From Bdellovibrio sp. (GTDB taxonomy: Bacteria; Bdellovibrionota; Bdellovibrionia; Bdellovibrionales; Bdellovibrionaceae), in assembly GCA_046070625.1 (NCBI GenBank), contig JBJTMR010000061.1:570-64569 (forward strand): a DNA stretch of 64,000 nt. Reading direction: 5' to 3'. Made by a program: the position numbers and the translations under genes. Below are positions 30,466 through 51,251 of this stretch, one piece after another (position 1 is the stretch's first letter; each line of letters starts with the position of its first letter). The notes under the pieces are model-generated. The model did not search any database. It was not told where the DNA came from and saw only the letters and a list, made by a program, of their open reading frames with translations.

Positions 30466-31577
30466 TTTCAACTGCAAAAACAGTTTTTGATTCCATCCAA
30501 GAAAAAATCTCAAGACTTCCCTTGAATGAGTTCATGCTTTCCAGTGACGAAGAAAATCAAATGCGCTCGCAAAAGATCGAACAGCTCATCTTAACGGAAA
30601 CGGCTTCGTTGGAAGAGACACAACGCCGTCGAATCCAAGATGAATTCAACTCTTGGGGGCCCCTGGCCGCCCCGCTTGAAGATGAATCCATCACAGAAAT
30701 ATTAGTGAACGGCCCTGATAGCATTTGGATCGAACGTAAGGGGCAACTGGAAAAACACCCGGATTTCTTTTTCTCTGATTTAAGTTTTCGCAACTGTCTG
30801 GAAAGAATTTCCTTGGCGGCAAAGTCTCATATTACTGTTGAGCATCCCTGTGCAGACGGTCAATTTGGGAACTTTCGTTTAAGTCTTATCGGCGCAGATC
30901 TGACGCGCTCGACCCCGCACTTATCTTTACGACGCCACCCCAAAAACCCTTGGACCTTTGAAAAACTTCAGAGTCATCAGTGGTGTTCGGCCTCGGCAAC
31001 TGAATTTTTTCAACAAATGATCGAACAAAAAAAGAATTTTTTAGTTATCGGCGCTACGGGCTCTGGTAAAACATCCGTCCTGAATTCATTTTTAAATATT
31101 TTGCCCGAAAACGAGCGTGTAGTGGTGATCGAAGACACCGCTGAAATCGCGTTACCAAACTCTGCTAGCATGAAACTTTTAACTCGTGAAGATCCCCAGG
31201 GGATTTTGCCTACCGTTGATCAAGCCCAACTGGTCAAACGTTCCTTGCGCTTAAGACCGGATCGAATTGTCATGGGAGAAGTACGTGGTGCGGAAGCGAA
31301 GGACTTCTTGATGGCGCTGGCCACGGGACATTCAGGAAGCTTTGGAACCTTGCACGCTCAGGATGCGGCCCAGGCTTTGATTAGATTAGAGATGCTTATT
31401 CAAATGGGCGCTCCTCAATGGAGTTTGAGCGCCATTCGACGATTGATACAGCTCTCCCTCGACTACGTTATCGTCACTGGGAGAGAGTCCTCTGGAAAAC
31501 GAATTTTTAAAGGGGCGTATCGACTTTGTTCCCTGGAAGATCATGGCTTCCTTTTGGAGCCGATGAACTTGGAGTGA
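30462..31577 (+). CDS. cpaF: CpaF/TadA pilus assembly ATPase
   Basis: EILVNGPD, Walker A GATGSGKT, IEDTAE, LRLRPDRIVMGEVRG, TGHSGSFGTLHA. Confidence 0.95.
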   Translation: MISTAKTVFDSIQEKISRLPLNEFMLSSDEENQMRSQKIEQLILTETASLEETQRRRIQDEFNSWGPLAAPLEDESITEILVNGPDSIWIERKGQLEKHPDFFFSDLSFRNCLERISLAAKSHITVEHPCADGQFGNFRLSLIGADLTRSTPHLSLRRHPKNPWTFEKLQSHQWCSASATEFFQQMIEQKKNFLVIGATGSGKTSVLNSFLNILPENERVVVIEDTAEIALPNSASMKLLTREDPQGILPTVDQAQLVKRSLRLRPDRIVMGEVRGAEAKDFLMALATGHSGSFGTLHAQDAAQALIRLEMLIQMGAPQWSLSAIRRLIQLSLDYVIVTGRESSGKRIFKGAYRLCSLEDHGFLLEPMNLE

Positions 31578-36096: not shown

Positions 36097-37203
36097 ATGG
36101 CAAAAACAAAGGCGAAATCTTCTAATTCGACCAAGTCTTCGAAAGAGATAAAAGCGGCACCTAAAAGTTCCGCGAAGAAATCACCTGCGCCTAAAAAAAG
36201 TAAAATTGAACCCAAAGCAGTTGTCGCTGAGATCGTTGAAAACGAAACCGGCGATGAAAATCCTCATGCAGAAGCTGAAAAAGCTTACACTCTTCCGCAA
36301 GACGAAGATTTCACAAACGACGAAATCACCGACAGCCCAAAAGCCATCGCGGTAGTAGAGCCTTCCAAAGCTCTTACGTCTTCAGACCCTTTAGTGACCT
36401 ATTTAAATGAAATTCGCCGCTATCGAGTTCTTAGCAAAGAAGAAGAAACAGCCCTCGCGAAAAAATATTTTGAAACGAAGGATCCTGAGGCCGCTCAAGA
36501 TCTCGTTAAAGCAAATCTGCGTTTCGTTGTAAAAGTCGCGGCAGAGTATTCAAAATTCGGCGCCAAGATGATTGATTTGATTCAAGAAGGCAACGTCGGC
36601 CTGATGCATGCGGTTCGCGAATTCAACCCCTATAAAGGGGCTCGCCTCATCACCTATGCGGTTTGGTGGATTCGCGGTTATATTCAAGAATATCTTATGC
36701 GCCAATATTCTATGGTGCGTATTGGAACGACTCAGAATCAGCGCAAGTTGTTTTACCAACTGCAAAAAGAAAAAGAGGCGTTGGATGCTATGGGGGTTCA
36801 CCCCACCACGGCCTTGATCAGTAGCCGCTTGGGAATTCCAGAAGACGAAGTGCGCGACATGGCCATGCGCATGTCTGGACGCGATGTCAGCTTGGACCGC
36901 CCTGTTGATGACGACTCTGGAACAAGCCTGGGTGACCTTCAAAAAAGCCACACCTCCGATGAGTCCTTGGATGATACTCTTGCACACCAAGAGCAGCTCG
37001 AAATTCTTAAAAAGAAAATCGAAGAAATTCGTCCAGAGCTTTCTGAAAGAGAAAAAATCATTCTCGATGAGCGAATCTTAAATGATGATCCGTTAACCCT
37101 CCAAGAAATTGGCGAAAAGCACGGCATAACCCGAGAAGCTGTTCGACAAATGGAAGCTCGCCTGTTGAAAAAGATCAAATCGAAAATGGAAGAGCAGCCT
37201 TAA
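36097..37203 (+). CDS. rpoH: RNA polymerase sigma factor, RpoH/sigma-32 family
   Basis: YLNEIRRY, NLRFVVK, DLIQEGNVGL, TYAVWWIR, RpoH box QRKLFYQL, LQEIGEKHGITREAVRQME. Confidence 0.9.
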   Translation: MAKTKAKSSNSTKSSKEIKAAPKSSAKKSPAPKKSKIEPKAVVAEIVENETGDENPHAEAEKAYTLPQDEDFTNDEITDSPKAIAVVEPSKALTSSDPLVTYLNEIRRYRVLSKEEETALAKKYFETKDPEAAQDLVKANLRFVVKVAAEYSKFGAKMIDLIQEGNVGLMHAVREFNPYKGARLITYAVWWIRGYIQEYLMRQYSMVRIGTTQNQRKLFYQLQKEKEALDAMGVHPTTALISSRLGIPEDEVRDMAMRMSGRDVSLDRPVDDDSGTSLGDLQKSHTSDESLDDTLAHQEQLEILKKKIEEIRPELSEREKIILDERILNDDPLTLQEIGEKHGITREAVRQMEARLLKKIKSKMEEQP

Positions 37204-37628: not shown

Positions 37629-39395
37629 ATGAGTATGTCGATAAAATTCAAATTCCTCCTGATTACGTCGGTTCTATTAATTGGTTCCTCTGCCACGATC
37701 TTTTTAATAAACCGTGAATCATTTTTAGATGATAAAAGATCTTATCTTTATGCTTCTGCCCTAGAGCGCGTAGATAGCGCAGCAGAAAATTTCCAAAGAT
37801 CTTTCGATGTGAATTTCGATCGAATCAGTTCCGCATTACAGTTATTTGATCCGGCGACCCAACAGTTTCCTCCGCAAATAAAAAAAATCGCAGAAAATCA
37901 AACATGGGGTGATATCGGATTATATACTGCTGAGCCCGGCTTTCCCTTAAGACTCGTGGACGCTATTGGGCAACCTTCGAACCTGCCAGAGAGCCAGGCG
38001 GCCCGCCTATCAAATATCGCGGAAGGGCAAACACAGATTGATGTGGACCTTGCGACCCCGGATCGTATTCGCATATTCTTCCGCCAGGGAAACTATAGAA
38101 TATTCGGAAACTTAAAAATGGCCTTTTTCAAAGCCCTCCGTGATCAAGGTGAAATGGGTCTTTTGAAAGTGAGCAACTCAGAATTTTACTTTCCTCCCCA
38201 TCTGAAAGAGTTACAGCCTCTGGCGCCTCAGCTGATGACCTTAATGACCGGAGACAACAACGGCGTGAAGGATATTACCTACAACTCTCGTCCCTATTTG
38301 GTTTCTTACCGCACGCTTCCGATCATCAATACGGTGATCTTTGAAATTCACGATAAGAAAAAAATCTTCTCTGTCCTCGACAGCACCATGAACAGAACGC
38401 TATTCGCCAGTGCGATCATTTTACTGGCGGGTCTTTTAGCTATCTATTTTTCCGTCGACAACTTGACTGGAAATCTTTCGAAGCTGGCGGGGGCTATGCA
38501 ATCTTTCGCAACCAGTGGTACGGCTAAAAAACTTCAAATTAACAGCCAAGACGAAGTCGGCAAAATGTCCGGGGTCTTCAACTCAATGCAGGAGAAAATC
38601 GAAAACCTGCTCAAACAGACCCAAGAAAAAGCCCGAATGGCCAGTGAGCTTGAAACTGCGAAAGAGGTTCAGTCCGCCCTGCTTCCGAAGGCAAAGGTCG
38701 ATAATGAACGGTACACTGTTAAAGGTTACTATCAGCCCGCTTCCGAGTGTGGTGGAGATCTGTGGTTCCATAACTGTAAAGACGACAAGGTATTTGTCTT
38801 TATTGGAGATGCTACCGGGCATGGTGTTCCTGCCGCTCTTATTACCGCCGCAGCCAGGTCCATTCTTTCGATGTGTGTGGACGAAAACATTTGGAGTCCT
38901 TCTAAAGTGCTCTCCATGATTAACAAAGTTCTCTGTGACATCGCTGGCGGAGAAAAAATGATGACCGCCTTTGCGGCCGTGATTGATCTGAGCGCAAAAA
39001 AACTGACTTACTCCAACGCCAGTCATGATGTTCCTTTTATCGTGCCCCTGTCTGAAGAAGGACGAAAATTTAAAAAAAATGACCTGATGTTTTTGGGAGA
39101 AGCAAACAACAAACGTCTAGGTCATGAAAAGGGCACTTCCTACCAAGAAGAGTCACTGCCTTTCAATCCGGGACAAACCTTCTTTGCCTACACGGACGGA
39201 CTTATAGATGCCAAGAACTCTGGCGATGAAATCTTTGGGGAACGAATTGTTTTGAAGCTTGCGGCAGATTCAGCCACGAGAGGATCGCAACGCAGCCTGT
39301 ACGACCAAATCGCTCGAAAGGCCTCAGAGTTTACTGAGGGAGTCGAGCAACCTGACGACATTACGTTTGTAAGTTTTCACTGGAGATTAGATTAG
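37629..39395 (+). CDS. Membrane sensor PP2C/SpoIIE-type phosphatase (periplasmic sensor-HAMP-PP2C)
   Basis: Two TMs, HAMP (SQDEVGKMSGVFNSM), GGDLW, GDATGHGVPAAL, YTDGLID, DDITF. Confidence 0.92.
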   Translation: MSMSIKFKFLLITSVLLIGSSATIFLINRESFLDDKRSYLYASALERVDSAAENFQRSFDVNFDRISSALQLFDPATQQFPPQIKKIAENQTWGDIGLYTAEPGFPLRLVDAIGQPSNLPESQAARLSNIAEGQTQIDVDLATPDRIRIFFRQGNYRIFGNLKMAFFKALRDQGEMGLLKVSNSEFYFPPHLKELQPLAPQLMTLMTGDNNGVKDITYNSRPYLVSYRTLPIINTVIFEIHDKKKIFSVLDSTMNRTLFASAIILLAGLLAIYFSVDNLTGNLSKLAGAMQSFATSGTAKKLQINSQDEVGKMSGVFNSMQEKIENLLKQTQEKARMASELETAKEVQSALLPKAKVDNERYTVKGYYQPASECGGDLWFHNCKDDKVFVFIGDATGHGVPAALITAAARSILSMCVDENIWSPSKVLSMINKVLCDIAGGEKMMTAFAAVIDLSAKKLTYSNASHDVPFIVPLSEEGRKFKKNDLMFLGEANNKRLGHEKGTSYQEESLPFNPGQTFFAYTDGLIDAKNSGDEIFGERIVLKLAADSATRGSQRSLYDQIARKASEFTEGVEQPDDITFVSFHWRLD

Positions 39396-39428: not shown

Positions 39429-41171
39429 CTATTGAGCAATCTTTCTCACCTTCATATTTCCTTCAACCAGGTCTGATAACCGAATAGAACGACGATCTAA
39501 TTCCGCTTCAATCTGCTGGCAGATCGTACGGCGAACCTGCGCGGTTAATTTGCGGGGCGGGATAACAACCATGTCCGCCAAATCTCTTTCGACAATCATC
39601 GCCTTTTTCTCTGGCAAACTAGAAAGAGCATACGTAAAGAAGACTGCTGGAGTTCTAAAGAATGCCGCATAAAGGGCTTCTACCTCAAGACCACCCAAAA
39701 CTTCACCCACTATATCCAGAGGAGTAATTTTTAAATCATCAAAGGTCAAAATAGATCTGCGTACGCGCTCTAGTTCCTCTGGATTTTCATTGGCAAACAA
39801 GGCCAACATGTCCATTTCCTCTTCCGGTGTCATGCCACGGATAACTCGAGCCAATACCGTCGCGCCTTGAATTTTTGGTTCGGGCTTTACACGCATTTCC
39901 ATCATTCGTTGATTGAATGACTGGATGACCATCTTCACGACGTCATGAGGAAGCTTTTCGATGCGTGAAAGTTCGCTCATAACACGCACCTTTTTTTCAC
40001 CTTCCATTGTAGCAAGGATACCGGCAGTCACTTCAGCTGGTGCATGCAAACAAAAGATTGCAATATTGCGCGCGCTTTCTTTGTCTAAGATTTGCTGGCG
40101 CTCATCTTCACGCATTTTTAAGACAAAGCTAAACGGATTTTGTTCATCTTCAGTCATTTCATGTTCAATGTAAGCCGCAAGTATAGCGCGATAAGTTTCT
40201 CGCACACCGGTTTCAATCTGTGCGGTCGTCGGATCACCCTGACGGTCTTTAACCGTACGACCCATCTTTGCCCACGCCATCGCTGGAATTTCCGTAAATG
40301 CCTGTTTAGCAATATCCCAGCCCAAGAAATCCATCATATAAGTGGCATTTTCGGCGGACTTTTCCAGACAATACTCTGCCATCGCACGAGATGCCATCTG
40401 AGGATACCTAGCTGCAATTTGCACCACATGTTGACGAACGGAGTCCAAATCTAAATCCCAAATTGGCGGTTTCTCCGGTTCAGGAATCACTGGAGAAGCG
40501 GCCGCTGCAACGGTCGGCACAGGTTCTTCTTCTTTTACTTCAGGTTTCGGTTCCTGATGACGATAATCGTGATTTTCTTTAAACTCTTTCTTAGGATCCT
40601 GAGCTCGTGCACGTCTCCACACAGCGAACATCAATCCCGCAAGAGCAAGCAACGACAAGATCACTACTAAAGTCCAAGTCTTCCACGTAAGCTCGGGCAG
40701 CTTTTTGGGAGCTTCTTCCAGCTTTGGGTCTGATGGCAATTCAATCCGACGAACGACCACAGCATCTCCAGCATTTGCGTCTAAATGTAATTTAGACGTC
40801 AGAAGGTCTCTAATGACCTTCTCTACCTCTGGAGAAACATTCCGCGACAGAACGACACTAATATCTGTTTTTGCCTTCATTTCATGAAGCTTATTGGCCG
40901 CCTGAGGGGCCACAGGAACGTCGCCCATCATCGGCATACCTGGAAGATATTGAACTTCTGCTTCATCATGAAATTCTTTAAGCTTTTTCTCGTCACGGTC
41001 CAATTCTACCGAAACAACCAAAGTATAATCCGTTGGACGCAAAATAGTGTTCAGAACAGCCCGGGCCCGAATTTCATAAAGGCTTTCCAAGGATCCCATT
41101 TCTTCAATATATTGTGCCTTGACGGACAGTGTGGAAAAAACAAGTCCTAAAACTATTAAGGTTTTTTTCAT
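39429..41171 (-). CDS. FliF(RBM3)-TM-FliG(M/C) fusion protein
   Basis: Cleavable signal; LESLYEIRARAVLNTIL...VVSVELD and ISVVLS...IRDLLTSKLHLDANAGDAVVV match the FliF ring domain; one TM; IAIFCLHAP, GATVLARVI, ENPEELERVRRSILTFDDL and SSLPEKKAMIVERDL match FliG middle and C domains. Confidence 0.8.
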   Translation of the reverse strand: MKKTLIVLGLVFSTLSVKAQYIEEMGSLESLYEIRARAVLNTILRPTDYTLVVSVELDRDEKKLKEFHDEAEVQYLPGMPMMGDVPVAPQAANKLHEMKAKTDISVVLSRNVSPEVEKVIRDLLTSKLHLDANAGDAVVVRRIELPSDPKLEEAPKKLPELTWKTWTLVVILSLLALAGLMFAVWRRARAQDPKKEFKENHDYRHQEPKPEVKEEEPVPTVAAAASPVIPEPEKPPIWDLDLDSVRQHVVQIAARYPQMASRAMAEYCLEKSAENATYMMDFLGWDIAKQAFTEIPAMAWAKMGRTVKDRQGDPTTAQIETGVRETYRAILAAYIEHEMTEDEQNPFSFVLKMREDERQQILDKESARNIAIFCLHAPAEVTAGILATMEGEKKVRVMSELSRIEKLPHDVVKMVIQSFNQRMMEMRVKPEPKIQGATVLARVIRGMTPEEEMDMLALFANENPEELERVRRSILTFDDLKITPLDIVGEVLGGLEVEALYAAFFRTPAVFFTYALSSLPEKKAMIVERDLADMVVIPPRKLTAQVRRTICQQIEAELDRRSIRLSDLVEGNMKVRKIAQ

Positions 41172-42124
41172 CGCACTACTCCAGAACTTAATATAGCCTG
41201 CGCCATATCTTTAATTTGAGGATATTGAGACTCTTTACTAATTCGAATTACTTCCGCACGAAACTCTTCCACAGAAGACAATTCACGAACGCCGACCAAA
41301 AATGCCTCTTCGTTAGACTCTCCTGATTTTTTAGCCAATCCACCTAGATACTTTTTAAGATCCCCTTTAACCATGCCTCGGTTAATGACCAGTTGCTTAA
41401 ATATCAAAGGCCTAAATTTTTCGTTATAAGAATCATAGGATTTATAGATTTCATTCCAAAAATCAGAAGCGACTCGAAGATCACGCATCTGACTGATTAA
41501 CAAAACGGCTTCATAGGGACCTGTTTTAGAACGAATTTTCTCGTGAACAATTTTGCGTGCCTTTTCGGGAAAAGGGTTCAATCGAACTAATGTCTCCGCG
41601 ACGATGTCCTTTTGGTTTCCGGGCTGCGCTGATTTTTCAAAATTTAACAAGTGATTCGTTGCCTTAGTGGACAATGAATCAAATTTTAATAAAACTTTTG
41701 ATGCATAACTCAAAATCTGAGCTTCTTCACCTAGAACCGGTTTCTCGCGCTTCGCAGTCATGAAGTCCGCAATTTGCTCCTGCAACTGATTCAAATGTTC
41801 TTTTTCTTCTGGTTTCCATTCAGGCTTTGCCACATCCAAAACATAGATGCTGGCTTGAAAGAAATTTCGATTTTCACTTAGAGATTTGCTCAACCCAAAG
41901 AATCCTGACAGGGCGGCAAAGTTTTTTTCTTTCCAGGCTTTCCCAGTTGGTGAAGTCAGATGAGTACTCACTGTTAACCCATGAGCCTTTTTAAGGTCCG
42001 CCAACACATCGGCACCTTCAGATATTTTTGCTGAGTGACTCGTTTTTTTATAAAACAAATAACTACCGCTAACTATCGCCGTTAAAAATACAACTCCTGA
42101 TATTATGACAATCTTCTTATTCAT
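41168..42124 (-). CDS. Membrane-anchored helical protein, unknown function
   Basis: N-terminal TM, helical (HEAT-like) body; ATGA overlap with the FliF-FliG fusion. Confidence 0.75.
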   Translation of the reverse strand: MNKKIVIISGVVFLTAIVSGSYLFYKKTSHSAKISEGADVLADLKKAHGLTVSTHLTSPTGKAWKEKNFAALSGFFGLSKSLSENRNFFQASIYVLDVAKPEWKPEEKEHLNQLQEQIADFMTAKREKPVLGEEAQILSYASKVLLKFDSLSTKATNHLLNFEKSAQPGNQKDIVAETLVRLNPFPEKARKIVHEKIRSKTGPYEAVLLISQMRDLRVASDFWNEIYKSYDSYNEKFRPLIFKQLVINRGMVKGDLKKYLGGLAKKSGESNEEAFLVGVRELSSVEEFRAEVIRISKESQYPQIKDMAQAILSSGVVR

Positions 42125-42127: not shown

Positions 42128-42712
42128 TTACTCGAATCCCACGAAACGGACCCCCGCAAAGAGGGTGATAAAAGTATACTGCACGCCATCTTCCGCCGTC
42201 CCTGCAGCGGTAAGGCTGGAACCCATTGCAACCTGTCCTATCAAAAGCATATTGGACATCATCGGAATCTCAACCCCGCCTCGAAGGTTAAGATCAACAA
42301 GCGAAGCATTAAAGTCTTTGACTGCCAAATTAGATAACCCCAGATTGGCCGCCACAAATGGTGTAGGCCGCCATACCTTTGCTTGAGTTCGGCTGTCTAA
42401 AATGGTGCGAAGACCATTGGTACCGAAAAGGTAATACCGCGCTCCCAGAGCAATCCGTGTAAACGGCATCTGCATTCCTTCGGCCTCCGTCATCTCCATA
42501 AAAGACAGAGTAAAAGCGGTGTTGATAGAAGGACTATTGACACTGTAGTTCACTTCTAGAGTCGTAGGTGACTCTATCGTTTTTGAAGATGAGTCCCTAG
42601 CAAAGGCATACTTTAATGACGTCATACCTAAGCTCACATCCCAATCGGATGTCAAATAAGCCCAAGCAGGCGACGACATTAAAAGCGCTATCACTAAAAC
42701 CCAAGCCTTCAT
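42128..42712 (-). CDS. Small outer-membrane beta-barrel candidate
   Basis: Signal peptide (AWA|YL), amphipathic strands (ALGARYYL, PFVAANLG, LRGGVEIP), aromatic near C-terminus. Confidence 0.7.
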   Translation of the reverse strand: MKAWVLVIALLMSSPAWAYLTSDWDVSLGMTSLKYAFARDSSSKTIESPTTLEVNYSVNSPSINTAFTLSFMEMTEAEGMQMPFTRIALGARYYLFGTNGLRTILDSRTQAKVWRPTPFVAANLGLSNLAVKDFNASLVDLNLRGGVEIPMMSNMLLIGQVAMGSSLTAAGTAEDGVQYTFITLFAGVRFVGFE

Positions 42713-43605
42713 TAACGAACAACCTTTTTATCTGGGTTACGTTTGTCGATCTCAATCGTTGATGCCGGATATCTCATCTCGGCTCCCGATTGTGGAAGCG
42801 GAGCCATTCCCAGACGTTTGTAAACGTCAGATAGATACTGGTAAGCCACTTTGTTGTAAGGATCGATCTTCAAACATCTCTCCCAAGCTACCTTCGCTCC
42901 CTGGAAGTCTTTCTGCAAATATTTTACAGAGCCCTTTAAGAGCCAGGCATTGTTGGAGTACTCATCCATTGTAATTGCCTTATCAATTTGCTCCAGAGCC
43001 TGCGGATAGTTTCCTTTCATGATGGCTTGCTGACCTTGAAAGATAAGCCCCACCACTTTTTCACTACGATCCCGATCTGTTTGCGGCATTCCCCCAGATA
43101 AACGTGGAGAGAACAAAGCATCCTTGTAAAAGGACGAAGTATTCTCTAGTAATGCCACCCGCAATTTTAGCTCAGAAAGTTCCGCCAAAAGATCATCCAT
43201 TTTTTTGTCTTCAGGCTTCTTTTTATCCTCGGGTTTTTGTTGAGGATCTTGCTTTTTCTGATCATCGTTTTTCGCTAACTCTTCGGCCTTTTTTTCTTCA
43301 TCAGACAAAGGGTCGAGGCGCGCCTGTACCGCAATACTTTCCCCTTCATTAACCTTCACCATGACTTCTTTTGTACGATAGTTTTGTTTTTCAAAAATTA
43401 GAAAGAAAACATCGCCCAGCTTAGACTCTTCTTGTACGTTCAGAGGAGCAATACCCAAAAGCTTTTTTTCGTTACTCTGCATATCTTTGATGTAGACTTT
43501 TGATCCAGTCGGATAAGACTTGATTGAGTACTTCCCGGCACAAGCTGAGATAAATACTGGAGAAAGAGCAAGGCACAACATTTTCAGTTGTCGTGTCAGA
43601 AACAT
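42712..43605 (-). CDS. PEGA-domain plus TPR lipoprotein
   Basis: Start moved to ATG 43605 (GGAGG RBS); lipobox FISAC; YSIKSYPTGSKVYI...LGIAPL PEGA-like; coiled coil; TPRs (YPQALEQIDKAI, AKVAWERCLKIDPYN). Confidence 0.8.
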   Translation of the reverse strand: MFLTRQLKMLCLALSPVFISACAGKYSIKSYPTGSKVYIKDMQSNEKKLLGIAPLNVQEESKLGDVFFLIFEKQNYRTKEVMVKVNEGESIAVQARLDPLSDEEKKAEELAKNDDQKKQDPQQKPEDKKKPEDKKMDDLLAELSELKLRVALLENTSSFYKDALFSPRLSGGMPQTDRDRSEKVVGLIFQGQQAIMKGNYPQALEQIDKAITMDEYSNNAWLLKGSVKYLQKDFQGAKVAWERCLKIDPYNKVAYQYLSDVYKRLGMAPLPQSGAEMRYPASTIEIDKRNPDKKVVR

Positions 43606-43691
43606 TTCCATTATCCTCCATGATATATGGGCGTCGCATTCTGCTTCCCCATATTCATTTTCCCAAGTATGAGAGGAAAAAAGCATTGCTT

Positions 43692-44306
43692 ATGAGACAT
43701 ATCCTATCCTTAGTCCTGTTATTAATGTTCTGTGATGTTTCGCGTGCCAACCTTCAGGCACCAGTCTTAAGAACTAAGCTTTCTATGTACAACACGACGG
43801 TGACCGCAGGCGAGCTGGTCCAGGAGCAAGCTCTTGGCTCTCTGATGACGTTTCAGCCCTCACTTCTTTGGGACATTCCCTCGATGAGCGCACGCGTAGG
43901 GGTGCACTATATTATCGATATTAATAGCAAATATGGGGCTACTCCTATCTCAGGCATAGGTTTAAGTGGATATTACTATCTCAAAGGTTTGTCTTCGGTT
44001 TATGAAGTTACTCCGGATGAGGTCTTAACTCAAAAGTCGCGTCCAGGCTTGTTTACCTTCGCAAGCTTCACTCCGGTTAATTTTAATCTAAATAAAATGG
44101 ATCAAGCCGATCCGAATCAGTCATTTTCTTTTAGTGCTCTGGTATATGAATTTATTCTAGGTCTAGGATATGAATATCCTTTAAAACCGAATGCTCTTCT
44201 GGCTTTTGAACTTTCCCAGAGAGAAGGCTCCTCATCTTCCGGAGACAAAAATGTTCGGTACTCCGGCATGGGCTTCTCTCTGGTATTTACGACTTCTTAC
44301 TATTGA
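43692..44306 (+). CDS. Small outer-membrane beta-barrel candidate
   Basis: Start moved to MRHILSL; signal peptide (SRA|NL); amphipathic strands; ends TTSYY. Confidence 0.7.
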   Translation: MRHILSLVLLLMFCDVSRANLQAPVLRTKLSMYNTTVTAGELVQEQALGSLMTFQPSLLWDIPSMSARVGVHYIIDINSKYGATPISGIGLSGYYYLKGLSSVYEVTPDEVLTQKSRPGLFTFASFTPVNFNLNKMDQADPNQSFSFSALVYEFILGLGYEYPLKPNALLAFELSQREGSSSSGDKNVRYSGMGFSLVFTTSYY

Positions 44307-45247
44307 GCTTTCTCTTCGTACTGCTTGGCTTTCGTTTCAAGAGCTTCAATTTTCTTTTCTAAGTTCTGTAATTGTTGCTCTTTACGTTTTTGCTCAGCCT
44401 GTTCACGGTACTTTCTTTGAGCTTCCTCAAAACGAGCTTTCGCGAGCTTCATCTTATCTTGCAGTTCCGCCTCTTTTTGTTGGCGTTCCACTTCTTCTTT
44501 ATTGAGTTGTTTTTTAAACTGTTGCTGTTGCAGACGGTATGCCGCCTCCGGATCCATCATCTTTACTGCAATCATCACACGACGATTTACAGCTTTGTTG
44601 GTCGGTAGATCCTCGCCCTTGGCGTCTTTCTCTGGAGCAATTGGCTGAGAAGATCCATATCCCACTGCTGACAGCATTTTCGATTCAAGACCACTTTCCT
44701 CAAGATACCGAACCACAGAGCTTGCGCGCAATGATGACAACTCCCAATTTGATTTGATCAAGCTATTTTGCATACGATCGCCGTCCGTGTGTCCTTCAAC
44801 TGAAATCTTTTCCACACCGGGAACAGATCTTAAAGCTGCAACGACCTTGCGCATGCCGGATTTAGCTTCTTCTCGCAATTCAGTCGCGCCAGAGGCAAAT
44901 AGAACTTCTCCATCAAATTTTAAAAGAATCGTGTCGTCAGATCCCTTGGAAACTTCGACGCCTTTTAAATCACCAGATCCCAACAGAGTTGTTTTTAGCT
45001 TCTGTTCAGCCAAAACAATTGTGCTAGTCTCTTTAATTGTACCACCGAAATATTGAGCGACTTCTTTCCGAACCAAATCGAATTTTGTGTTATCAAATCT
45101 TGATAGAGAATACATCAAAACGAAAAACCCAAAAAGTAAGGTCATCATGTCCGCATAACTGACGAGCCAATTGGATTCGTCATGAGAATGAGATCCGTGA
45201 TCGTCATGCTCCTCGTGATGCTTGCTGCGTTTACTTGGTGCCCCCAT
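44300..45247 (-). CDS. motB: MotB-family stator subunit with C-terminal coiled-coil extension
   Basis: WLVSYADMMTLL with the proton-accepting Asp; OmpA domain VEGHTD, SNWELSSLRA, VGYG, NRRV. Confidence 0.93.
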   Translation of the reverse strand: MGAPSKRSKHHEEHDDHGSHSHDESNWLVSYADMMTLLFGFFVLMYSLSRFDNTKFDLVRKEVAQYFGGTIKETSTIVLAEQKLKTTLLGSGDLKGVEVSKGSDDTILLKFDGEVLFASGATELREEAKSGMRKVVAALRSVPGVEKISVEGHTDGDRMQNSLIKSNWELSSLRASSVVRYLEESGLESKMLSAVGYGSSQPIAPEKDAKGEDLPTNKAVNRRVMIAVKMMDPEAAYRLQQQQFKKQLNKEEVERQQKEAELQDKMKLAKARFEEAQRKYREQAEQKRKEQQLQNLEKKIEALETKAKQYEEKAQ

Positions 45248-46048
45248 TTAGGCCGCCTTTTTTGTCGCTGGCATTTCGTTGTTACGTTGACCTGGTGGCA
45301 AGAAAGATTTTAGATATTCACGAATAAAAATGGGATGTTTTTTCTCATGAACTAGAAGAACACCTTCCTTAATAATCTCTCGCAAGGTCATATCTGCCTG
45401 AGATACGCTGATCAACTTTTCGCTGATTGGAATCAAAATAAGATTGGCCAACAACAAACCGTAGAATGTCGCAACGAGAGCCGTCGCCATGGCCGGACCG
45501 ATACGATCTTGGGCCCCTGGTTCACCCAATGTCTGAAGCAACGAAATCATCCCCAAAGTTGCCCCCAAAAGACCGAATGCCGGGGGAAAACGGGATAGCG
45601 TCTGCCACACTTTTATTTCCTCGCCATCACGCTTTCTTTTACCACGAACGGCGTTAGACAGTACCTCATCTAGTTCTTCATAATTAAAACCATAATCAAC
45701 TAAGAGCTGAATACCATCTTTTAAAAATGGATGATCCGACGGTTTCAAAGCACTTTGAACTGCTTTAGGATCTTTCCTATAGGCCTCAGAAAGTTCGACA
45801 ATCTTTTCAATTGTATCCAAATAGTTAATCGCTCTTTCACGACCTAGATATTTTCGAGCAATGATTTTCAGCGCTGTTCCTAGACTTTTGAAATTGAAGC
45901 TCATCAAGGCAACGGTAAGCGTTCCGCCCACCACCAGCATCAATCCATGTACGTCCGCAAACACCTTTGGATTTTTTGCGCTGTCGAGAATTGCAAAGCC
46001 GGCAATCCCTGCCGCCGCTAATAGTCCTAATAAACCTGCAAAATTCAT
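45248..46048 (-). CDS. motA: MotA-family stator subunit
   Basis: LVVGGT, HPFLKDGIQLLVD, PPAFGLLGATLGMI, IGPAMATALVATFYG, IPISEKL. Confidence 0.93.
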   Translation of the reverse strand: MNFAGLLGLLAAAGIAGFAILDSAKNPKVFADVHGLMLVVGGTLTVALMSFNFKSLGTALKIIARKYLGRERAINYLDTIEKIVELSEAYRKDPKAVQSALKPSDHPFLKDGIQLLVDYGFNYEELDEVLSNAVRGKRKRDGEEIKVWQTLSRFPPAFGLLGATLGMISLLQTLGEPGAQDRIGPAMATALVATFYGLLLANLILIPISEKLISVSQADMTLREIIKEGVLLVHEKKHPIFIREYLKSFLPPGQRNNEMPATKKAA

Positions 46049-46201
46049 AGTTCCTCCGAAAATTCACAGTTGAAATAATCCACTGGTTTCTTCGAAACAT
46101 TTTCATGAGTTCTAAACTGTACTTAAGCTTAGATTTTCGAACTTTAGCTGGTTGCAATTTTGTGGAAAAGGTTCTCACGTTTATACTAAAGAGAACTAAG
46201 G

Positions 46202-46642
46202 GTGAAAATTATGATCACGGCTATTACATTTGTTTTTATACTTATATGTGTCGTGGAAGGCGTACTTATCACACGCGAATTCCTCGGAACACGAAGGAAC
46301 GTTACCGCTAAATCTCTTTTGGCTGAACTCCAAAATGAAAATCGCGCCCTATCCGAAAAGCTAGGTGCTACAGAGAAAAAGCTAGACGAAGCTCATAAGG
46401 AACTACAAGGCATTCATCTTTTATGGAATAAAGCCCTTCTATCTGAGCAAGGCCTCCGACAGGACCTTGAGATAGCGAAAACTCAGCTAACATATCTCGC
46501 CCAAACTGTCTTAAAAATTAAATCAGAAACAAAGACTTACTGGTCGGAAGAAGTAACGACAGTTGCTGCTCCTCCAAAGAAATCAGAAAATCTTCGTGCC
46601 TTTAAAAACTCTAGCGAGCTTATTGCTCGGGACTTTCTCTAG
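46202..46642 (+). CDS. Membrane-anchored coiled-coil protein
   Basis: N-terminal TM followed by about 70 aa of heptads; divergent from motA. Confidence 0.7.
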   Translation: MKIMITAITFVFILICVVEGVLITREFLGTRRNVTAKSLLAELQNENRALSEKLGATEKKLDEAHKELQGIHLLWNKALLSEQGLRQDLEIAKTQLTYLAQTVLKIKSETKTYWSEEVTTVAAPPKKSENLRAFKNSSELIARDFL

Positions 46643-47379
46643 TTTTTCTGCCCTTTTACTTCGGACTTCTTACACTTTTCCGTAAATCTGTCGGGCACGA
46701 CGTCTAGTTGGCGAAGATCCACCGTTCCATCCTTATCCTTAAAGACTTTAAAGTCATCCATGCACGTTCCTGGAGTTTGTAAGGCATAAAGAATTCCAGA
46801 CAAAGACTTTTGCAGTGCTGAGTTCACTTTGGAAATCTGCTCAAATGCTGGCGTTGCGGTACAAACGGTTTCTCGATTTTTGCGATAGCCTTCTAGCTCA
46901 TTTTTTACAACTCGAGTCTCTCTGCGATACTTATCTAAAGCGATAGAAGAATCATACTTGACCAAGTCTGTAGCGGTAGCAGCCTTGTCGAGGTCATCCG
47001 ATATTTTAATAACGTTCTTTTCTATTTCTATAAAGAGATCACTCTTGTATTTGCTAATTTCTGACAAAGAAGCCGTTTTGCGGTACGCTTTTAGGTTTGC
47101 AAAGCGGTCCGACTTTGCATCAATTTCAAATACCCGTTCGTAACCAGCCTTGCTCTTGACGGTGATATAGCCAAGGACAGCGGCTTGGTCGATGAACAGA
47201 CCGACGTCGTCAGCCTTCATCAAAATAAGATCACCATCCTTTGCGACCCATTGACAGATCAGGTTTGAACCCGTATTTCGAATAAGGCAGTAGAGCTCAT
47301 TTGATTCAATCTGGGATGCCAAAACAGCAGTCCCCATTCCGAAACTCACTACAATGCCCACTAGAAAGTATTTAAACAT
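46639..47379 (-). CDS. Secreted protein, unknown function
   Basis: Signal peptide (VLA|SQ), five Cys, helical middle. Confidence 0.75.
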   Translation of the reverse strand: MFKYFLVGIVVSFGMGTAVLASQIESNELYCLIRNTGSNLICQWVAKDGDLILMKADDVGLFIDQAAVLGYITVKSKAGYERVFEIDAKSDRFANLKAYRKTASLSEISKYKSDLFIEIEKNVIKISDDLDKAATATDLVKYDSSIALDKYRRETRVVKNELEGYRKNRETVCTATPAFEQISKVNSALQKSLSGILYALQTPGTCMDDFKVFKDKDGTVDLRQLDVVPDRFTEKCKKSEVKGQKN

Positions 47380-47400
47380 AGGACTCTCCTCTCTGGTCGC

Positions 47401-48345
47401 CTAGTATGTCTGGCTCCATGTCCACGTATATTTCATTACCAACGCAAAGGTCGACGAGTGCATGGACCAATGATCCGTATAACTGCCAATAGAACCATGA
47501 ACTTGAGCTTCGCGATAAATGTAGCCGATGCCCAGGTAATAGGAATTTAAGTTTTTGATATTTTGAAAATCGACACCGACTTCACCTCGAATTTTATTAT
47601 CCGAGTCTACGCCAAGTGATGAGCTTTGACCTTGATGGAGACCATACAAATATTCAAAGTTTGATATAATTTTTTTAAACGGCGCGATCACGTGATCATA
47701 ACTAATATTAAGTCCTAGGACCATATCGTTGATTGAAGATATCCCCAACTCTGCAGATGAAAGAAACTCAAGTGAGGGATAAGCATCCCATCCAGCGACA
47801 AAGCCATAGCAGGCTTTATTCATAGCGTGATTTCCGACGCTACAATAAGTAAAACGGCTAACGACTGTTTCTACGTTTGCTGTCGATGAGTTGACTTGAT
47901 AACTTCCAACATTTTGGCCCTGGACCGCAAAAGAAGAATGACTGTATTCCAACTCAGCATAAAAAATCGGACTGGCCAAATAGCGCCCGCTTAAGACAAC
48001 GCTATCATAAGACGTCACTGAAAAGTTCATCGGCAGATCATAGTATTCTTGCTTAAAACCCGTCTTCATCGGTGCAATCGCTACACCAATCTGATAACGC
48101 GGATAATTTAGATAACCAGTATAAGGTTGTGGGTTCCTCAAAGCCTGAACCGGATCGACCTTCGATTGATCTTTACTATTGCTGACTTTCAATTTCAATT
48201 TTGTCTTTTCGTCTGAAAAAGAAGGGTCGCCAAAAGCATTGAATTTATACTCTGGACGTTCCGGAGAATTTTCGGCCCAACACGGAAGCGACGTGCTAAT
48301 TGAAATCGCAAAAAGACTGCCTATCAGCAAAGAACTTTGGCGCAT
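47401..48345 (-). CDS. Outer-membrane beta-barrel candidate
   Basis: Signal peptide, Tyr/Ser/Gly-rich amphipathic strands, ends KYTWTWSQTY. Confidence 0.7.
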   Translation of the reverse strand: MRQSSLLIGSLFAISISTSLPCWAENSPERPEYKFNAFGDPSFSDEKTKLKLKVSNSKDQSKVDPVQALRNPQPYTGYLNYPRYQIGVAIAPMKTGFKQEYYDLPMNFSVTSYDSVVLSGRYLASPIFYAELEYSHSSFAVQGQNVGSYQVNSSTANVETVVSRFTYCSVGNHAMNKACYGFVAGWDAYPSLEFLSSAELGISSINDMVLGLNISYDHVIAPFKKIISNFEYLYGLHQGQSSSLGVDSDNKIRGEVGVDFQNIKNLNSYYLGIGYIYREAQVHGSIGSYTDHWSMHSSTFALVMKYTWTWSQTY

Positions 48346-49563
48346 CTACGGAACCACCCACATGCAATACCAGGTCGCAGAAGCCCCTGCCGCTGAAAGT
48401 GTTATCGTCACATTCCCTGCTGATGACACAAACGATGACCACACAACTGACGCGCCCTGTGTGGCACTCGGTGAGCACGAGATTGCGGCCCCGACGGGTG
48501 CGCTGGTACAAGCTTTTGCATTTGCGCCTAAGACAGCTGTAAATGCAGAAATAGTACATGCTCCTACGGAGCTCACGGCAACACCGGAGCTTCCAATTTT
48601 TACTTTACCAGTGGAACCACCTTGAATGATAGTCGCAGCAGCAGCTCCTGTGTTACCCACCGTAACCGCGCCGGCACCTGTCGATCCTCCGACAGCTATA
48701 TTTTGCACGCCTGTGCTGGCCCCAATTGAAATTGCGCCTGTTGAACTCCCCCCACCAATAGTGGTAGTGCTCGCCCCAGAAGTATTTACTGTTGTGGTTC
48801 CCAATACTGACATCGCTCCGAGTGTACTTGCCCCAGTGACGCCAAATGTGCCTCCCACTGTGGCATTAGTCGTCACAATTACAGCAGTCCCGGCTGCATT
48901 GAATGTCGTGCTATTGGATATAGTCGTCGGAAGCACAGAGCTTGAAAGAGTCCCAGAGGAAATACTGGAGGCATTCAAACTCGTCAAATTGGCTCCGTTG
49001 ACTGCTGGCAATGTGGCCGGAAACGTCGTCGTCGGCAGTGTCCCTACAATGTTAGCAGCCGCAATGTTGGTCACTGTCGACCCATCCCAAGCCGGTAAGA
49101 CGCCGGAGGGTGCAAAGGAAGCACTTGTGATCGCTCCAGCAACGACCGCATTAGCTTTATCAGATAAAAGAGACAAGGCGACCGGGGTTGCCTGTATATC
49201 AAAACTCACTGGTAATCCGTCCACTGTAGATTGGATATTTACGACCAGACTTCCCGAAGCAGCTCCAACCAAAGTTGCAGAATCAATACCTCCCGAATAA
49301 GGAGGAGATGAGCTTCCCGACAAACTTTGAGAAAAGAACCCCCCACTGACACTGACTGAAAATGATTTTGTCCAAAAGTACGTATTCCCGGAACGAATAG
49401 AAAATGTCATTGCGTAGCTGCCATCAGTTACTGCTGCGCCGGATATTTTACGGAGATACCCTTGAACGAAAAGAGTGTTCATGTTGGGCGCTGCAGATAC
49501 GAAGCCCCCGTATCCCAAAATAAAAATACCGAACAGAAATTTCAAACGCTTGAAAATATTCAT
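48346..49563 (-). CDS. Secreted fibre-like adhesin
   Basis: Signal peptide; FVQGYLRK...YAMTFSI...SGGFFS N-domain; LPAWDGSTVTN / LPAVNGANLTSLNASSISSGTL repeats; G/T/S-rich repeats; small Cys-rich tip. Confidence 0.7.
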   Translation of the reverse strand: MNIFKRLKFLFGIFILGYGGFVSAAPNMNTLFVQGYLRKISGAAVTDGSYAMTFSIRSGNTYFWTKSFSVSVSGGFFSQSLSGSSSPPYSGGIDSATLVGAASGSLVVNIQSTVDGLPVSFDIQATPVALSLLSDKANAVVAGAITSASFAPSGVLPAWDGSTVTNIAAANIVGTLPTTTFPATLPAVNGANLTSLNASSISSGTLSSSVLPTTISNSTTFNAAGTAVIVTTNATVGGTFGVTGASTLGAMSVLGTTTVNTSGASTTTIGGGSSTGAISIGASTGVQNIAVGGSTGAGAVTVGNTGAAAATIIQGGSTGKVKIGSSGVAVSSVGACTISAFTAVLGANAKACTSAPVGAAISCSPSATQGASVVWSSFVSSAGNVTITLSAAGASATWYCMWVVP

Positions 49564-49575
49564 TTCACACCATCA

Positions 49576-50499
49576 CTAAGGATTTAACCACTGTGCACCT
49601 ACCGCCATAGGACCTATCAGCATTTGAACTTTTTGATTATCAGCACCCGACGAATTCAGATCGACCGCTTTTCCACTTAAACTATCTAAATTACCAATCA
49701 GCGACGGAGAGGAATTGACCGGTCCTCCACTAAAGCCCGAAGCTCCCCCCGAGGAAACGGAGGCCGCTAAAATCGTTGTCAGCGAAAAATAGCTTACGGA
49801 CATAACCCCGGCTCCCGAAACATTCCCAACTAGGTCCTTCACCGTAAATGCCAAACTGCGGGTTTGGCCCTCAGTCAGGTCCATCTCAAATGAAAAGCCA
49901 TTTGCCGATGGATAAGAGATCACTCCACCGCTAGGATACTGCAAGGAAACAACTCCTTCGCCACCAGTCCACCCTCCACTAACTCGAACATGACTATCAC
50001 TGCACGTCCAAATGCCTGTGGACAAGCGGCACCCTGAGACTGCATTCAAATAGGGAGCTGAAGGAGCATGGGTATCAATGATAATGACCTTCGATGTGGT
50101 CAAGCCCGCCAAGGCCGCGCCGTCAGCACGAAGCCCTTGAAGCTCTATCGCGTATTCATTCCCTAAATGTGGTGTAGAGGAGGGGAAAAATTTAGACCAG
50201 CTAAAAGTTCCACCGGCCCCACACGACGCTTCGACACTATCGATGGTTCCATTAATAATGACGGAGATTCTACCAACTCCCCGAGAGCACCGACCTTCAA
50301 TCGTCACCGTTGCAGAGTTCAAATAAATTTTCCCTAGGGAATCTACAGTCCATTCATTTTTACTTTTCCCAAGAATTTTTTCGACGGCCATTGATGGTGC
50401 CGCCGGAGACCCTGGTGATGCCGTGCCAATAGAAATATCACTTCCACCCTCAAGACAAGACGTCAAAATTAAGCAAAAGAAAAGAATGAGCCAATTCAT
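49576..50499 (-). CDS. Ig-like-domain lipoprotein
   Basis: Start moved to ATG 50499 (ATGA overlap); lipobox LTSC; beta-sandwich-like segments (TVTIEGRC, IIIDTHAPSAP, AFTVKDLVGN). Confidence 0.7.
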   Translation of the reverse strand: MNWLILFFCLILTSCLEGGSDISIGTASPGSPAAPSMAVEKILGKSKNEWTVDSLGKIYLNSATVTIEGRCSRGVGRISVIINGTIDSVEASCGAGGTFSWSKFFPSSTPHLGNEYAIELQGLRADGAALAGLTTSKVIIIDTHAPSAPYLNAVSGCRLSTGIWTCSDSHVRVSGGWTGGEGVVSLQYPSGGVISYPSANGFSFEMDLTEGQTRSLAFTVKDLVGNVSGAGVMSVSYFSLTTILAASVSSGGASGFSGGPVNSSPSLIGNLDSLSGKAVDLNSSGADNQKVQMLIGPMAVGAQWLNP

Positions 50500-51251
50500 C
50501 GTGGCAGCATTTCTTTCACACATCTTATGGGTATGAAAATAGGAACCCCCGTTGAAGAAGAAACCTTAATGTATTCTCCAATACGACGTCCAAAAACAAA
50601 TTTTGCTTTCTGGAATTTACCAATTACGTTGGCCGTTTCATCTGGCGCCATCAAACCAGTACAATTTTGCACAAAAGTCCATCGACCCGCTGGGCGAAGT
50701 TCATTTATCGTTGCTGGATTCGGCCTTGCTGGTGCTGTGACTTCGTCTTCTAGGGCTTTCAAAGACATTTCGTCGCGTTTCAATTCCTTTTTACTTTTCT
50801 CAATATCAGCACGAAGTGCATCGCTATCGTCAGTTTTTTTATTGAACTTCGCTAATAGATCTTGATATCGCTTTTGCACTCTTTTTCTGTTGTTCTGAAT
50901 CTCTGCGAGTTCGGCCTTTAAAAACTCCTGATCCTTTTGCAAAGATTCTTGCGCAATTTTCAAATCTTCAATTTGTCGGCGCTTCGCTCGAATATCGCGT
51001 TCGGTATCTTCTTTGTTCAGCTCGTACTCTTGCTTAAATCTCACGGCGGCGGCTTTGGCTTCTTCATAGCGCTGGCTTTCTTCAAATTCATCTTTTTGGG
51101 CCTGAATCAAAGCTCCCTCAGGATAAATGCTATTTACCGAGGTCTGAGCAGAACGAGCTGTGGCTGCATTCAAAATAACAAATATCCCAAAGACTAATCT
51201 CCTTAGACACGGATTTGCGAAAATTCGTAACCATATCAGTCGAGATTTCAA
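50496..51251 (-). CDS. Secreted coiled-coil protein with small C-terminal beta (SH3-like) domain
   Basis: Signal-like N-terminus, about 130 aa coiled coil, Pro linker, Cys-bracketed beta domain. Confidence 0.7.
   Translation of the reverse strand: MKSRLIWLRIFANPCLRRLVFGIFVILNAATARSAQTSVNSIYPEGALIQAQKDEFEESQRYEEAKAAAVRFKQEYELNKEDTERDIRAKRRQIEDLKIAQESLQKDQEFLKAELAEIQNNRKRVQKRYQDLLAKFNKKTDDSDALRADIEKSKKELKRDEMSLKALEDEVTAPARPNPATINELRPAGRWTFVQNCTGLMAPDETANVIGKFQKAKFVFGRRIGEYIKVSSSTGVPIFIPIRCVKEMLPR

Follow-up and report, generated by a model that had tools for sequence, protein, structure and literature searches.

Domain architecture of the fusion protein

The minus strand of a 64,000-nucleotide stretch of Bdellovibrio sp. 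DNA (contig JBJTMR010000061.1 of assembly GCA_046070625.1; hereafter the window, with positions counted from its first letter) contains at 39429-41171 an open reading frame (ORF), confirmed at exactly those ends, whose 580-residue product joins a FliF-like periplasmic domain to a FliG-like cytoplasmic region. The closest relatives of this product, referred to here as the fusion, are proteins of Bdellovibrio species (66-77% identical), and the existing database labels of its homologs read only "hypothetical" or "FliG C-terminal domain-containing protein." An AlphaFold2 model of the full-length protein, built on 19 homologs, had a mean predicted local distance difference test (pLDDT) score of 77. 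The following features were assigned.

39429-41171, minus strand: fusion gene, encoding a signal peptide, a FliF-RBM3-like domain, a transmembrane (TM) helix, a linker, and FliG-like N, M, and C domains (ORF, Pfam, Foldseek, and profiles)
41115-41171, minus strand: signal peptide, residues 1-19, predicted cleavage at VKA/QY (read from the sequence and from the conservation of A19/Q20)
41001-41114, minus strand: RBM3a half, residues 20-57, α1 and β1 (profile aligned with Salmonella FliF 238-280; AlphaFold2)
40878-41000, minus strand: short insert, residues 58-98, at the site of the FliF β-collar; helix, LPGMP loop, helix (AlphaFold2)
40746-40877, minus strand: RBM3b half, residues 99-142, β2, α2, and β3 (profile aligned with Salmonella FliF 404-437 and Vibrio FliF 419-457)
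40617-40676, minus strand: single TM helix, W166-W185, N-out/C-in (sequence reading; helix 163-190 in the model)
40452-40616, minus strand: Pro/Glu/Lys-rich cytoplasmic linker, residues 186-240 (modeled as disordered, pLDDT 33-45)
40143-40451, minus strand: FliG_N-like helical domain, residues 241-343 (Foldseek span; PF14842 in relatives)
39882-40142, minus strand: FliG_M-like domain, residues 344-430 (Pfam PF14841, E 2.4e-7)
39462-39881, minus strand: FliG_C-like domain, residues 431-570, with the torque helix (Pfam PF01706, E 5.3e-6; alignment with Aquifex FliG)

A preliminary description of this gene, made from the sequence alone, had proposed a cleavable signal, a single TM helix, and a Pro/Glu linker, and all three were found. 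The amino terminus reads MKKTLIVLGLVFSTLSVKA followed by QY, which places the SVKA/QY site at an A19-Q20 junction that is invariant or nearly so among the 19 homologs. Because the basic flank RRARAQDPKK follows the TM helix on its C-terminal side, the N-terminus is assigned to the outside and the C-terminus to the inside of the membrane. The linker is weakly conserved and varies in length among the same 19 proteins.

The periplasmic domain (residues 20-145) was folded in the AlphaFold2 model, with elements in the order α1 (20-40), β1 (49-57), insert (58-98), β2 (99-108), α2 (114-127), and β3 (137-142). A separate model of residues 20-160 alone was compared with the Protein Data Bank (PDB) by Foldseek. 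FliF S-ring/RBM3 chains, from either Vibrio or Salmonella, occupied all of the top 17 places (E 2.8e-4 to 6e-3, probability 1.00, template modeling score ∼0.54 on both normalizations), with engineered FliF-FliG fusion structures as the best among them; after a gap, OsmC-like and other unrelated folds appeared only at E ≥ 0.037.

The single fusion protein gave no FliF match in Pfam or NCBIfam, a 20-sequence profile of the close family yielded only two weak spurious matches and no FliF when compared with the PDB, and a member-by-member Pfam scan of the close family found PF08345 in 4 of 20 sequences (best E 0.078). The FliF link reached significance only once the family had been broadened by an exhaustive profile search. 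For this search, a hidden Markov model of the periplasmic domain alone, containing no FliG sequence, was run against 1.84 billion representative proteins and recovered 89 clusters (50% identity) that share the architecture of RBM3-like domain, TM segment at about residues 160-185, and FliG-like region; the distant relatives also carry the TM segment, and the N-terminus of most family members is a signal or a hydrophobic segment. In the set of the 54 most distant matches, Pfam reported FliG_C in 29, FliG_M in 22, and PF08345 (YscJ_FliF_C) in 20, the last with a best E of 1.6e-10 and with matches in relatives spanning profile positions 85-147. A widened-family profile of the periplasmic domain (35 sequences), compared with 177,635 PDB sequences, had no matches other than FliF (six different sequences, E 7.8e-6 to 3.8e-4) and SpoIIIAG (E 4.6e-4). 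The alignment with Salmonella FliF fell into two parts, 238-280 and 404-437, which are the RBM3a and RBM3b halves flanking the β-collar, and the invariant G135-D136 of the family lined up with the "RGD" motif of FliF in the profile alignment. By predicted structure and by sequence, the periplasmic part is confirmed as a FliF RBM3 domain, in two halves with a very short insert as the preliminary description had read it.

The insert measures ∼40 residues compared with ∼110 for the FliF β-collar. It is helical with a disordered loop (pLDDT <50), unlike the long rod-holding collar of FliF, and the loop carries an LPGxP motif (LPGMP here) with L57/P58/G59 invariant or nearly so in the 35-sequence family alignment. 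Neither RBM1, RBM2, nor the N-terminal YscJ_FliF family (PF01514) was detected in the fusion by Pfam or NCBIfam, and the mature periplasmic region comprises only ∼145 residues, all accounted for by RBM3 and the insert. The earlier statement that the fusion lacks the RBM1/RBM2 part that surrounds the export gate therefore stands.

Residues 241-570 were modeled as all-helical. Pfam placed both the M and C domains above their gathering cut-offs (PF14841, 31.3 bits vs 25; PF01706, 27.1 bits vs 23.3), in agreement with the FliG-like domains proposed earlier. When the full model was submitted to Foldseek, full-length FliG ranked first (Aquifex, and the Salmonella C-ring in both rotational states), in alignments of 310-323 columns at E ∼1e-6; an N-like domain is therefore present besides M and C, an addition to the preliminary description. 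Consistent with this assignment, PF14842 was precomputed for 17 of 30 homologs, and FliG_N was matched at E 7.6e-9 in the relative P0072. The family profile matched FliG only, down to E 2.2e-26, among all PDB sequences, and no MgtE structure was matched at E ≤ 0.01. A reading of this region as MgtE_N repeats alone was rejected, as the MgtE_N matches were faint and overlapped the FliG domains; the structural and profile comparisons of the two halves returned FliF RBM3 and FliG, as had been predicted. We also rejected a periplasmic location of the kind expected for an E-ring-type (MotE/FlbB/FlgY-like) protein, as the FliG-like region follows the TM helix and its basic inner flank. The score for the NCBIfam fliG equivalog TIGR00207 was 22.4 bits, below the cut-off of 226.7, and the fusion is therefore FliG-like and not an ortholog of flagellar FliG. 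Canonical FliG is soluble and docks through FliG_N on the tail of FliF; the fusion is instead covalently tethered to a TM helix and RBM3.

Residues at functional positions were counted in 25 family members, down to 28% identity. In the torque helix, P520, K/R522, K/R523, D/E530, and R548 are near-invariant, with K/R523 (or the pair 522-523) corresponding to Escherichia coli FliG R281 and D/E530 to D289. The position equivalent to E. coli D288 holds R, K, S, or G and is usually basic, so that the charge pattern is unlike that of canonical FliG. Of the FliM-binding EHPQR motif, E365 alone is kept, with variation at the H, P, and Q positions, and Pfam and NCBIfam scans of the cluster proteins found neither FliM nor FliN.

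A stator and envelope genes linked to the fusion gene

The fusion gene is the last gene of a minus-strand cluster. Directly upstream of it lie genes for envelope proteins and for a MotA/MotB pair, as follows.

41168-42124, minus strand: X318, 318 residues with an N-terminal TM segment; its stop overlaps the start of the fusion gene
42128-42712, minus strand: small secreted protein resembling an outer-membrane protein (OMP), 194 residues; weak OMP_b-brl match; core module member
42712-43686, minus strand: TPR lipoprotein, lipobox ISAC, Pfam TPR_1/TPR_2; core module member
43692-44306 (longest ORF from 43593), plus strand: second OMP-like small protein, a paralog of the 194-residue protein
44300-45247, minus strand: MotB; MotB_plug E 1.7e-17 and OmpA E 2.9e-18 (Pfam), NCBIfam MotD/MotB models
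45248-46048, minus strand: MotA, 266 residues, a PomA-like A subunit of flagellar stator type; NCBIfam PomA E 1.3e-43 over the full length

MotA residues 1-258 aligned end to end with residues 1-250 of PomA from the PDB (E 2.6e-31), in keeping with a four-TM A subunit that has a large torque-generating loop in the cytoplasm. The R88/R90-equivalent Arg is conserved in MotA, as are the channel motifs. In MotB, the plug, the TM Asp (in YADMMT), and the OmpA-like peptidoglycan-binding domain are all retained. After the OmpA domain, MotB has an unusual Lys/Gln/Glu-rich tail of ∼80 residues (∼235-315; window 44300-44550) that is probably a coiled coil, and MotB is long in related loci too (319-382 residues). 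The stator is a divergent member of its class that falls below the NCBIfam equivalog cut-offs (149 vs 341). MotB also matched the PADLOC ZorB models (E 2.4e-20), as would be expected of a Zorya-like anti-phage defense built on a MotAB-type motor. This match represents generic MotB homology, however, and the flagellar MotB/MotD models scored higher; moreover, PADLOC returned no ZorA match for MotA and neither an effector nor any other defense-family match for the remaining module proteins, and the 266-residue, PomA-like MotA lacks the long tail of ZorA. We rejected the defense reading, which we consider highly improbable.

The TPR lipoprotein has a weak PEGA-like N-terminal domain, a charged coiled region, and TPRs, and its true start is probably downstream of the ATG of the longest ORF. 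The two OMP-like paralogs are on opposite strands and are kept paired in most related loci. For X318, searches of Pfam, NCBIfam, PADLOC, and the PDB gave nothing informative.

We compared 27 loci by BLAST and profile searches. MotA, MotB, the fusion, the TPR protein, and the OMP-like pair recurred together from 77% down to ∼20-30% identity, and MotA/MotB adjoined the fusion in every sufficiently long locus examined. The linkage was kept despite shuffled gene order and orientation (L011 and L019), and in L021 the fusion start overlaps the MotB stop. The module is present across Bdellovibrionota and in metagenome-assembled genomes (MAGs) of Elusimicrobiota; one MAG of the Endomicrobiales (Elusimicrobiota) carries it beside a gene for a 2988-residue surface-type protein, with the TPR and OMP-like partners kept. 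Homologs of the TPR lipoprotein were found in nearly all distant loci, and orthologs of X318 were confined to closer relatives. Because the linkage survives large divergence and rearrangement, the parts of the module probably work together, and we regard the conserved linkage as good evidence of joint function.

The fusion is thus a component of a module that numbers six genes or more. The preliminary description had suggested a minimal rotor formed by one polypeptide, an idea that is strengthened by the dedicated MotA/MotB and envelope partners conserved next to the fusion gene across two phyla. Its suggestion that one polypeptide makes a complete motor was overstated, and both assembly of the fusion into a ring and rotation of that ring are steps that we infer.

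Two variants of the locus bear on how the parts may be arranged. Tandem fusion paralogs lie upstream of MotAB in L022 (8001-11094) and L027 (9001-12026), one short (381-393 residues) and one long (615-657 residues), both with the RBM3-TM-FliG-like layout, which suggests a hetero-oligomeric ring or two concentric rings. In L025 (9001-10599), just upstream of the genes for the TPR protein, the fusion homolog, and MotAB, a gene encodes a periplasmic protein of 532 residues (P0067) with three RBM3b-like repeats, one of which passes Pfam PF08345, and C-terminal TPRs; the makeup of this protein is a hint that the periplasmic ring may include the TPR partner.

The module is flanked by the following genes.

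37629-39395, plus strand: HAMP-SpoIIE (PP2C) phosphatase, convergent with the fusion gene (Pfam); possible regulator
51390-55224, minus strand: three upstream genes, for a 410-residue protein of unknown family, a 472-residue VWA protein, and a 396-residue protein of unknown family (Pfam, locus comparison)
55225-63940, minus strand: 2088-residue Big_9/cadherin-like giant protein and 807-residue FG-GAP repeat protein (Pfam)

A HAMP-SpoIIE phosphatase lies beside the fusion gene in the Bdellovibrio loci and also in the distant L023 (13077-15077), which suggests phospho-regulation of the module. The genes for the 410-residue, VWA, and 396-residue proteins accompany the module in Bdellovibrio, with VWA genes in distant loci as well, and giant proteins also flank the module in L001, L002, L022, L024, L026, and L027. 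Between the gene for the 410-residue protein and motA, the window has five minus-strand genes (46639-51251) that are absent from the other Bdellovibrio loci and gave no family match; they include those for a secreted Gly/Ser/Thr/Ala-rich repeat protein of 405 residues (48346-49563), a 314-residue OMP-like protein, and a 251-residue coiled-coil protein.

A non-coding element at 46110-46135 (minus strand), ∼60-85 nucleotides 5' of the motA ATG, is kept among Bdellovibrio species despite diverged flanks (also in L001, L003, L004, L006, L008, and L014). It reads AAATCTAAGCC(T/A)(A/G)GGTACAGTT(T/C)AG, with an invariant CGA ∼20 nucleotides further on, and may be a promoter or operator. Inspection by eye for sigma-70, sigma-54, and sigma-28 consensus sequences gave no clean fit, and a scan of the DNA for sigma-70 promoters and terminators returned fewer sites than shuffled sequence and nothing usable.

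Elsewhere in the window, a gene for a sigma-70 family factor (36097-37203) lies just past the phosphatase gene. In the interval 28175-31577, genes for a secretin (29164-30465), a T2SSE-family ATPase (30462-31577), and a DUF4423/HTH regulator probably belong to a system of the type IV pilus or Tad kind; L024, too, has a T2SSE ATPase gene near the module. A spike of GC content (0.517 vs ∼0.44-0.46 elsewhere) coincides with 24754-26832 (minus strand), where a 692-residue ORF without a Pfam match is overlapped by several alternative-frame ORFs.

The module as a candidate motor and its relation to the flagellum

The fusion had been presumed not to be the only fliG of its genome. In strain HD100 of the type species, B. 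bacteriovorus, the canonical fliF (Bd3404) and fliG (Bd3403) belong to a separate, standard flagellar cluster (supplement of PMC11323537), an observation that supports the presumption for HD100 and does not extend to the genome of the window. The flagellar cluster of HD100 holds its own motE, and the three motAB pairs of this strain are counted as flagellar stators (PMC11323537). The module stator has a span of 1844 bp, identical to that of motAB2 (Bd3021/Bd3020), and it is found at ∼2.90-2.92 Mb in a complete B. bacteriovorus genome, at the position corresponding to motAB2; from span and position, the module stator is very probably motAB2, and the fusion gene of HD100 is predicted to be located near Bd3015-Bd3016. 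This pair is dispensable in the genus and missing from epibiotic predators, and motAB3 is universal (PMC11870529, a preprint), a distribution that would suit motAB3 as the stator at the core of the flagellum and motAB2 as part of something accessory.

In RNA-seq assemblies of cultured relatives, contigs span motA through the fusion gene and start ∼15 nucleotides upstream of motA in three runs. The module genes are therefore expressed, as judged from contigs that carry neither strand nor quantitative information. Entries for Bd3014-3021 are absent from the supplements of the Karunker 2013 transcriptome, and PMC11323537 covers transcripts of motA2/motB2 and not those of the fusion or the module partners. 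Full-text literature searches yielded no mention of Bd3014-Bd3019 in the context of Bdellovibrio and no description of the fusion family or of the genes beside motAB2.

From its domain identities, topology, gene linkage, conserved interface residues, and transcription, we propose, with a probability of roughly 0.6, that the fusion is the rotor subunit of a dedicated, non-switching, export-free motor that is derived from the flagellum and has its own stator. According to this proposal, cleavage of the signal peptide would leave the FliF-RBM3-like domain on the periplasmic face of the inner membrane, where such domains would oligomerize side by side into a ring, as they do in the FliF S-ring (33-35 subunits) and in SpoIIIAG (30 subunits). 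By its TM helix and flexible linker, each subunit would hold a single FliG-like N-M-C unit below the membrane, and these units together would form a ring of torque helices, so that covalent fusion would provide the arrangement that the flagellum obtains from non-covalent 1:1 contact between FliF and FliG. PomA-like units of MotA5B2 type would open upon release of the MotB plug and anchor to peptidoglycan through the OmpA-like domain, and ion flow through the stator would push on the charged torque helix and turn the ring. No CheY-type switching of direction is expected because the EHPQR motif and FliM/FliN are missing, and no filament should be built because RBM1/RBM2, the collar, the export gate, the rod, and the hook are missing. 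The LPGxP insert, in place of the rod-holding β-collar, is the likely periplasmic output face; its partners may be the TPR lipoprotein and both OMP-like proteins, by way of which it would be coupled to the VWA, FG-GAP, and giant Ig/cadherin-like proteins. The likely role would be to move or energize surface adhesins, for surface motility or prey contact.

Several points weigh against this proposal. Oligomerization and rotation of the fusion are predictions, and the confidence of the model of the isolated periplasmic domain was only moderate (mean pLDDT 68). A few loci (L013 and L020) carry a fusion gene but no MotAB in the flanking sequence retrieved. MotA has a non-acidic residue at the position of E. 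coli E98 and PomA E96, so that of the two classic charge pairs only a single one is clearly kept. Deletion of motAB2 in HD100 reportedly had a slight effect on swimming, and such an effect would mean that the module stators can also serve the flagellum. The assignment to Bd3021/Bd3020 is a match of span length and genome position, not of HD100 sequence identity. Finally, motA2/motB2 transcripts were increased, up to several hundred-fold, in fliL (bd1076) mutants (PMC11323537), which ties motAB2 in regulation to the flagellar system.

The loss of the E98-equivalent charge is also consistent with a non-rotating energy transducer or signaling device, in which MotAB would act like Tol or Exb, the RBM3-like domain would serve only to oligomerize or bind partners, and force would reach the outer membrane through MotB and the TPR protein. 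The FliG-like region would then be an adaptor or regulator, possibly one responsive to the neighboring PP2C phosphatase, whose conserved position adjoining the fusion gene fits such a role; in addition, the other known non-flagellar 5:2 motors (ExbBD, TolQR, AglRQS, and GldLM) serve the envelope without a FliG ring. Those systems, however, belong to the non-flagellar stator clade and have small cytoplasmic domains, whereas MotA of the module aligns with PomA throughout. The charges of the FliG torque helix are kept down to 28% identity, and RBM3 is a ring-building fold whose only known relatives here, FliF and SpoIIIAG, form rings of 30-35 subunits. We judge a transducer of this kind to be quite unlikely.

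The flagellar character of MotA and MotB can also be read as the mark of an accessory of the flagellar motor. In that case the flagellated pole would have an additional ring or patch, formed by the fusion, that recruits, stores, or regulates MotAB2 for the sheathed flagellum, by analogy with the scaffolds of high-torque motors, which use TPR proteins, lipoproteins, and outer-membrane proteins. The listing of motAB2 among three flagellar stator pairs and its increase in fliL mutants agree with such a function; the known accessories of flagella include TPR/lipoprotein scaffolds as well as the E-ring, a ring of FliG/MgtE_N-like ARM domains that B. bacteriovorus also possesses. Against this explanation, the FliG-like part is cytoplasmic and has a conserved torque helix, which points to a stator target and not to a periplasmic scaffold, and the flagellar cluster is already provided with a motE. 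In the loci examined, moreover, the companions of the module are VWA, FG-GAP, and giant adhesin-like genes and in no case flagellar ones, and the module occurs in Elusimicrobiota MAGs. Cultured Elusimicrobiota, as distinct from the MAGs that bear the module, are not known to be flagellated. On balance, an accessory role for the fusion appears unlikely.

A broader form of the rotor proposal is more doubtful, and we advance it tentatively: the module might constitute an autonomous rotary nanomachine made up of nothing but the torque core of the flagellum (RBM3 ring, FliG, and MotAB), free of the type III export apparatus, rod, and filament, occurring at least in Bdellovibrionota and Elusimicrobiota, and driving a trans-envelope complex with integrin-like or giant adhesins. 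Two assignments of the module in Bdellovibrio are speculative. The gliding motor, the adhesins, and the force-transmission path of these bacteria remain unidentified according to a 2026 review (PMC13104615), and a trans-envelope "rose-like complex" at the biting pole, with a cytoplasmic ring of ∼17 nm and large extracellular densities (bioRxiv 10.1101/2022.06.13.496000), was still unassigned in 2025 (PMC12428579). The module could be the gliding motor or could be the rose-like complex, and it is a concrete candidate for either because parts of corresponding classes are encoded in it: a ring in the inner membrane that has a cytoplasmic face, a stator, a lipoprotein of the periplasm or outer membrane, outer-membrane proteins, and giant surface proteins.

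Every characterized FliG ring is flagellar, and every characterized non-flagellar ion-driven 5:2 motor works without a FliG-type rotor; for this reason the module would be a new use of the flagellar torque core. If the rotor proposal is correct, the rotor-stator core of the flagellum has been re-deployed without its secretion and filament parts. On the broader form of the proposal, this core could exist and work independently of the secretion system, and the module would be either a reduced offshoot of the flagellum or a surviving relative of a pre-flagellar motor. The finding bears on the separability and evolutionary order of the rotary and secretory halves of the flagellum, and it would give a new reading of the "three flagellar stator pairs" of Bdellovibrio. 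With one rotor gene and two stator genes, the module offers a simpler system for studies of stator-rotor coupling and for the engineering of membrane rotors, and it supplies candidate genes for two problems in predatory bacteria, namely the gliding motor and the envelope complexes at the prey-invasion pole.

Comparison with known systems

The module resembles the flagellar FliF/FliG core in the fold of RBM3, split by an insert at the same point, in the topology from periplasmic RBM3 through a TM helix to the cytoplasm, and in the presence of FliG N, M, and C domains with a charged torque helix next to a flagellar-type stator with plug, TM Asp, and OmpA domain. It differs in that flagellar FliF and FliG are separate proteins bound 1:1, here replaced by a single polypeptide; in that FliF has RBM1/RBM2 and an N-terminal TM anchor, in place of which the fusion has a cleavable signal peptide; and in that the ∼110-residue β-collar corresponds to a 40-residue insert with its LPGxP loop. 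The flagellum also keeps the EHPQR motif, which the fusion has lost, and no FliM/FliN, export-gate, or rod genes are linked to the fusion gene, whose neighbors instead encode TPR, OMP-like, VWA, and giant adhesin-like proteins.

Covalent joining of FliF and FliG is known from engineered proteins, which rotate and form S-rings (PMC10941966, PMC11481574). The Salmonella deletion fusions and the FliFG of Vibrio alginolyticus (PDB 8z4d/8z4g) share with the fusion a continuous polypeptide and have S-rings of 34-35 subunits; unlike the fusion, they are laboratory constructs with full-length FliF (RBM1-3 and two TM segments) and are functional only as parts of a complete flagellum. Natural fusion of FliF with FliG as such has a precedent in the Chlamydiaceae, with another architecture (Bergeron 2016, PMC4768692). 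The chlamydial protein is likewise a natural polypeptide with a FliF-type periplasmic and a FliG-like cytoplasmic region in bacteria without a complete flagellum. It keeps RBM2 and a second RBM, lacks a SpoIIIAG-like RBM3, and has two TM segments and a FliG_M-like piece only; no linkage to MotAB has been reported for it, and it has been proposed to work with the injectisome. The protein described here has RBM3 without RBM2, one TM helix and a signal peptide, and all three FliG domains.

SpoIIIAG provides an example of an RBM3-type ring-building motif, with an insertion between its halves, outside the flagellum. It differs from the fusion in having no FliG or stator association, in the nature of its insert, which is a large β-triangle/barrel, and in belonging to a feeding-tube or secretion-like complex in Firmicutes.

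The AglRQS-Glt, GldLM/type IX secretion, TolQR, and ExbBD systems are alike in the proposed direction of force, from an inner-membrane proton motor via periplasmic TPR proteins or lipoproteins to outer-membrane barrels and surface adhesins; in Myxococcus, for example, one such adhesin is the VWA protein CglB. These motors belong to the non-flagellar stator clade and have no FliG rotor (PMC12505986, PMC13104615). In the module, by comparison, the stator is of the flagellar type, and its presumed target is a FliG ring.

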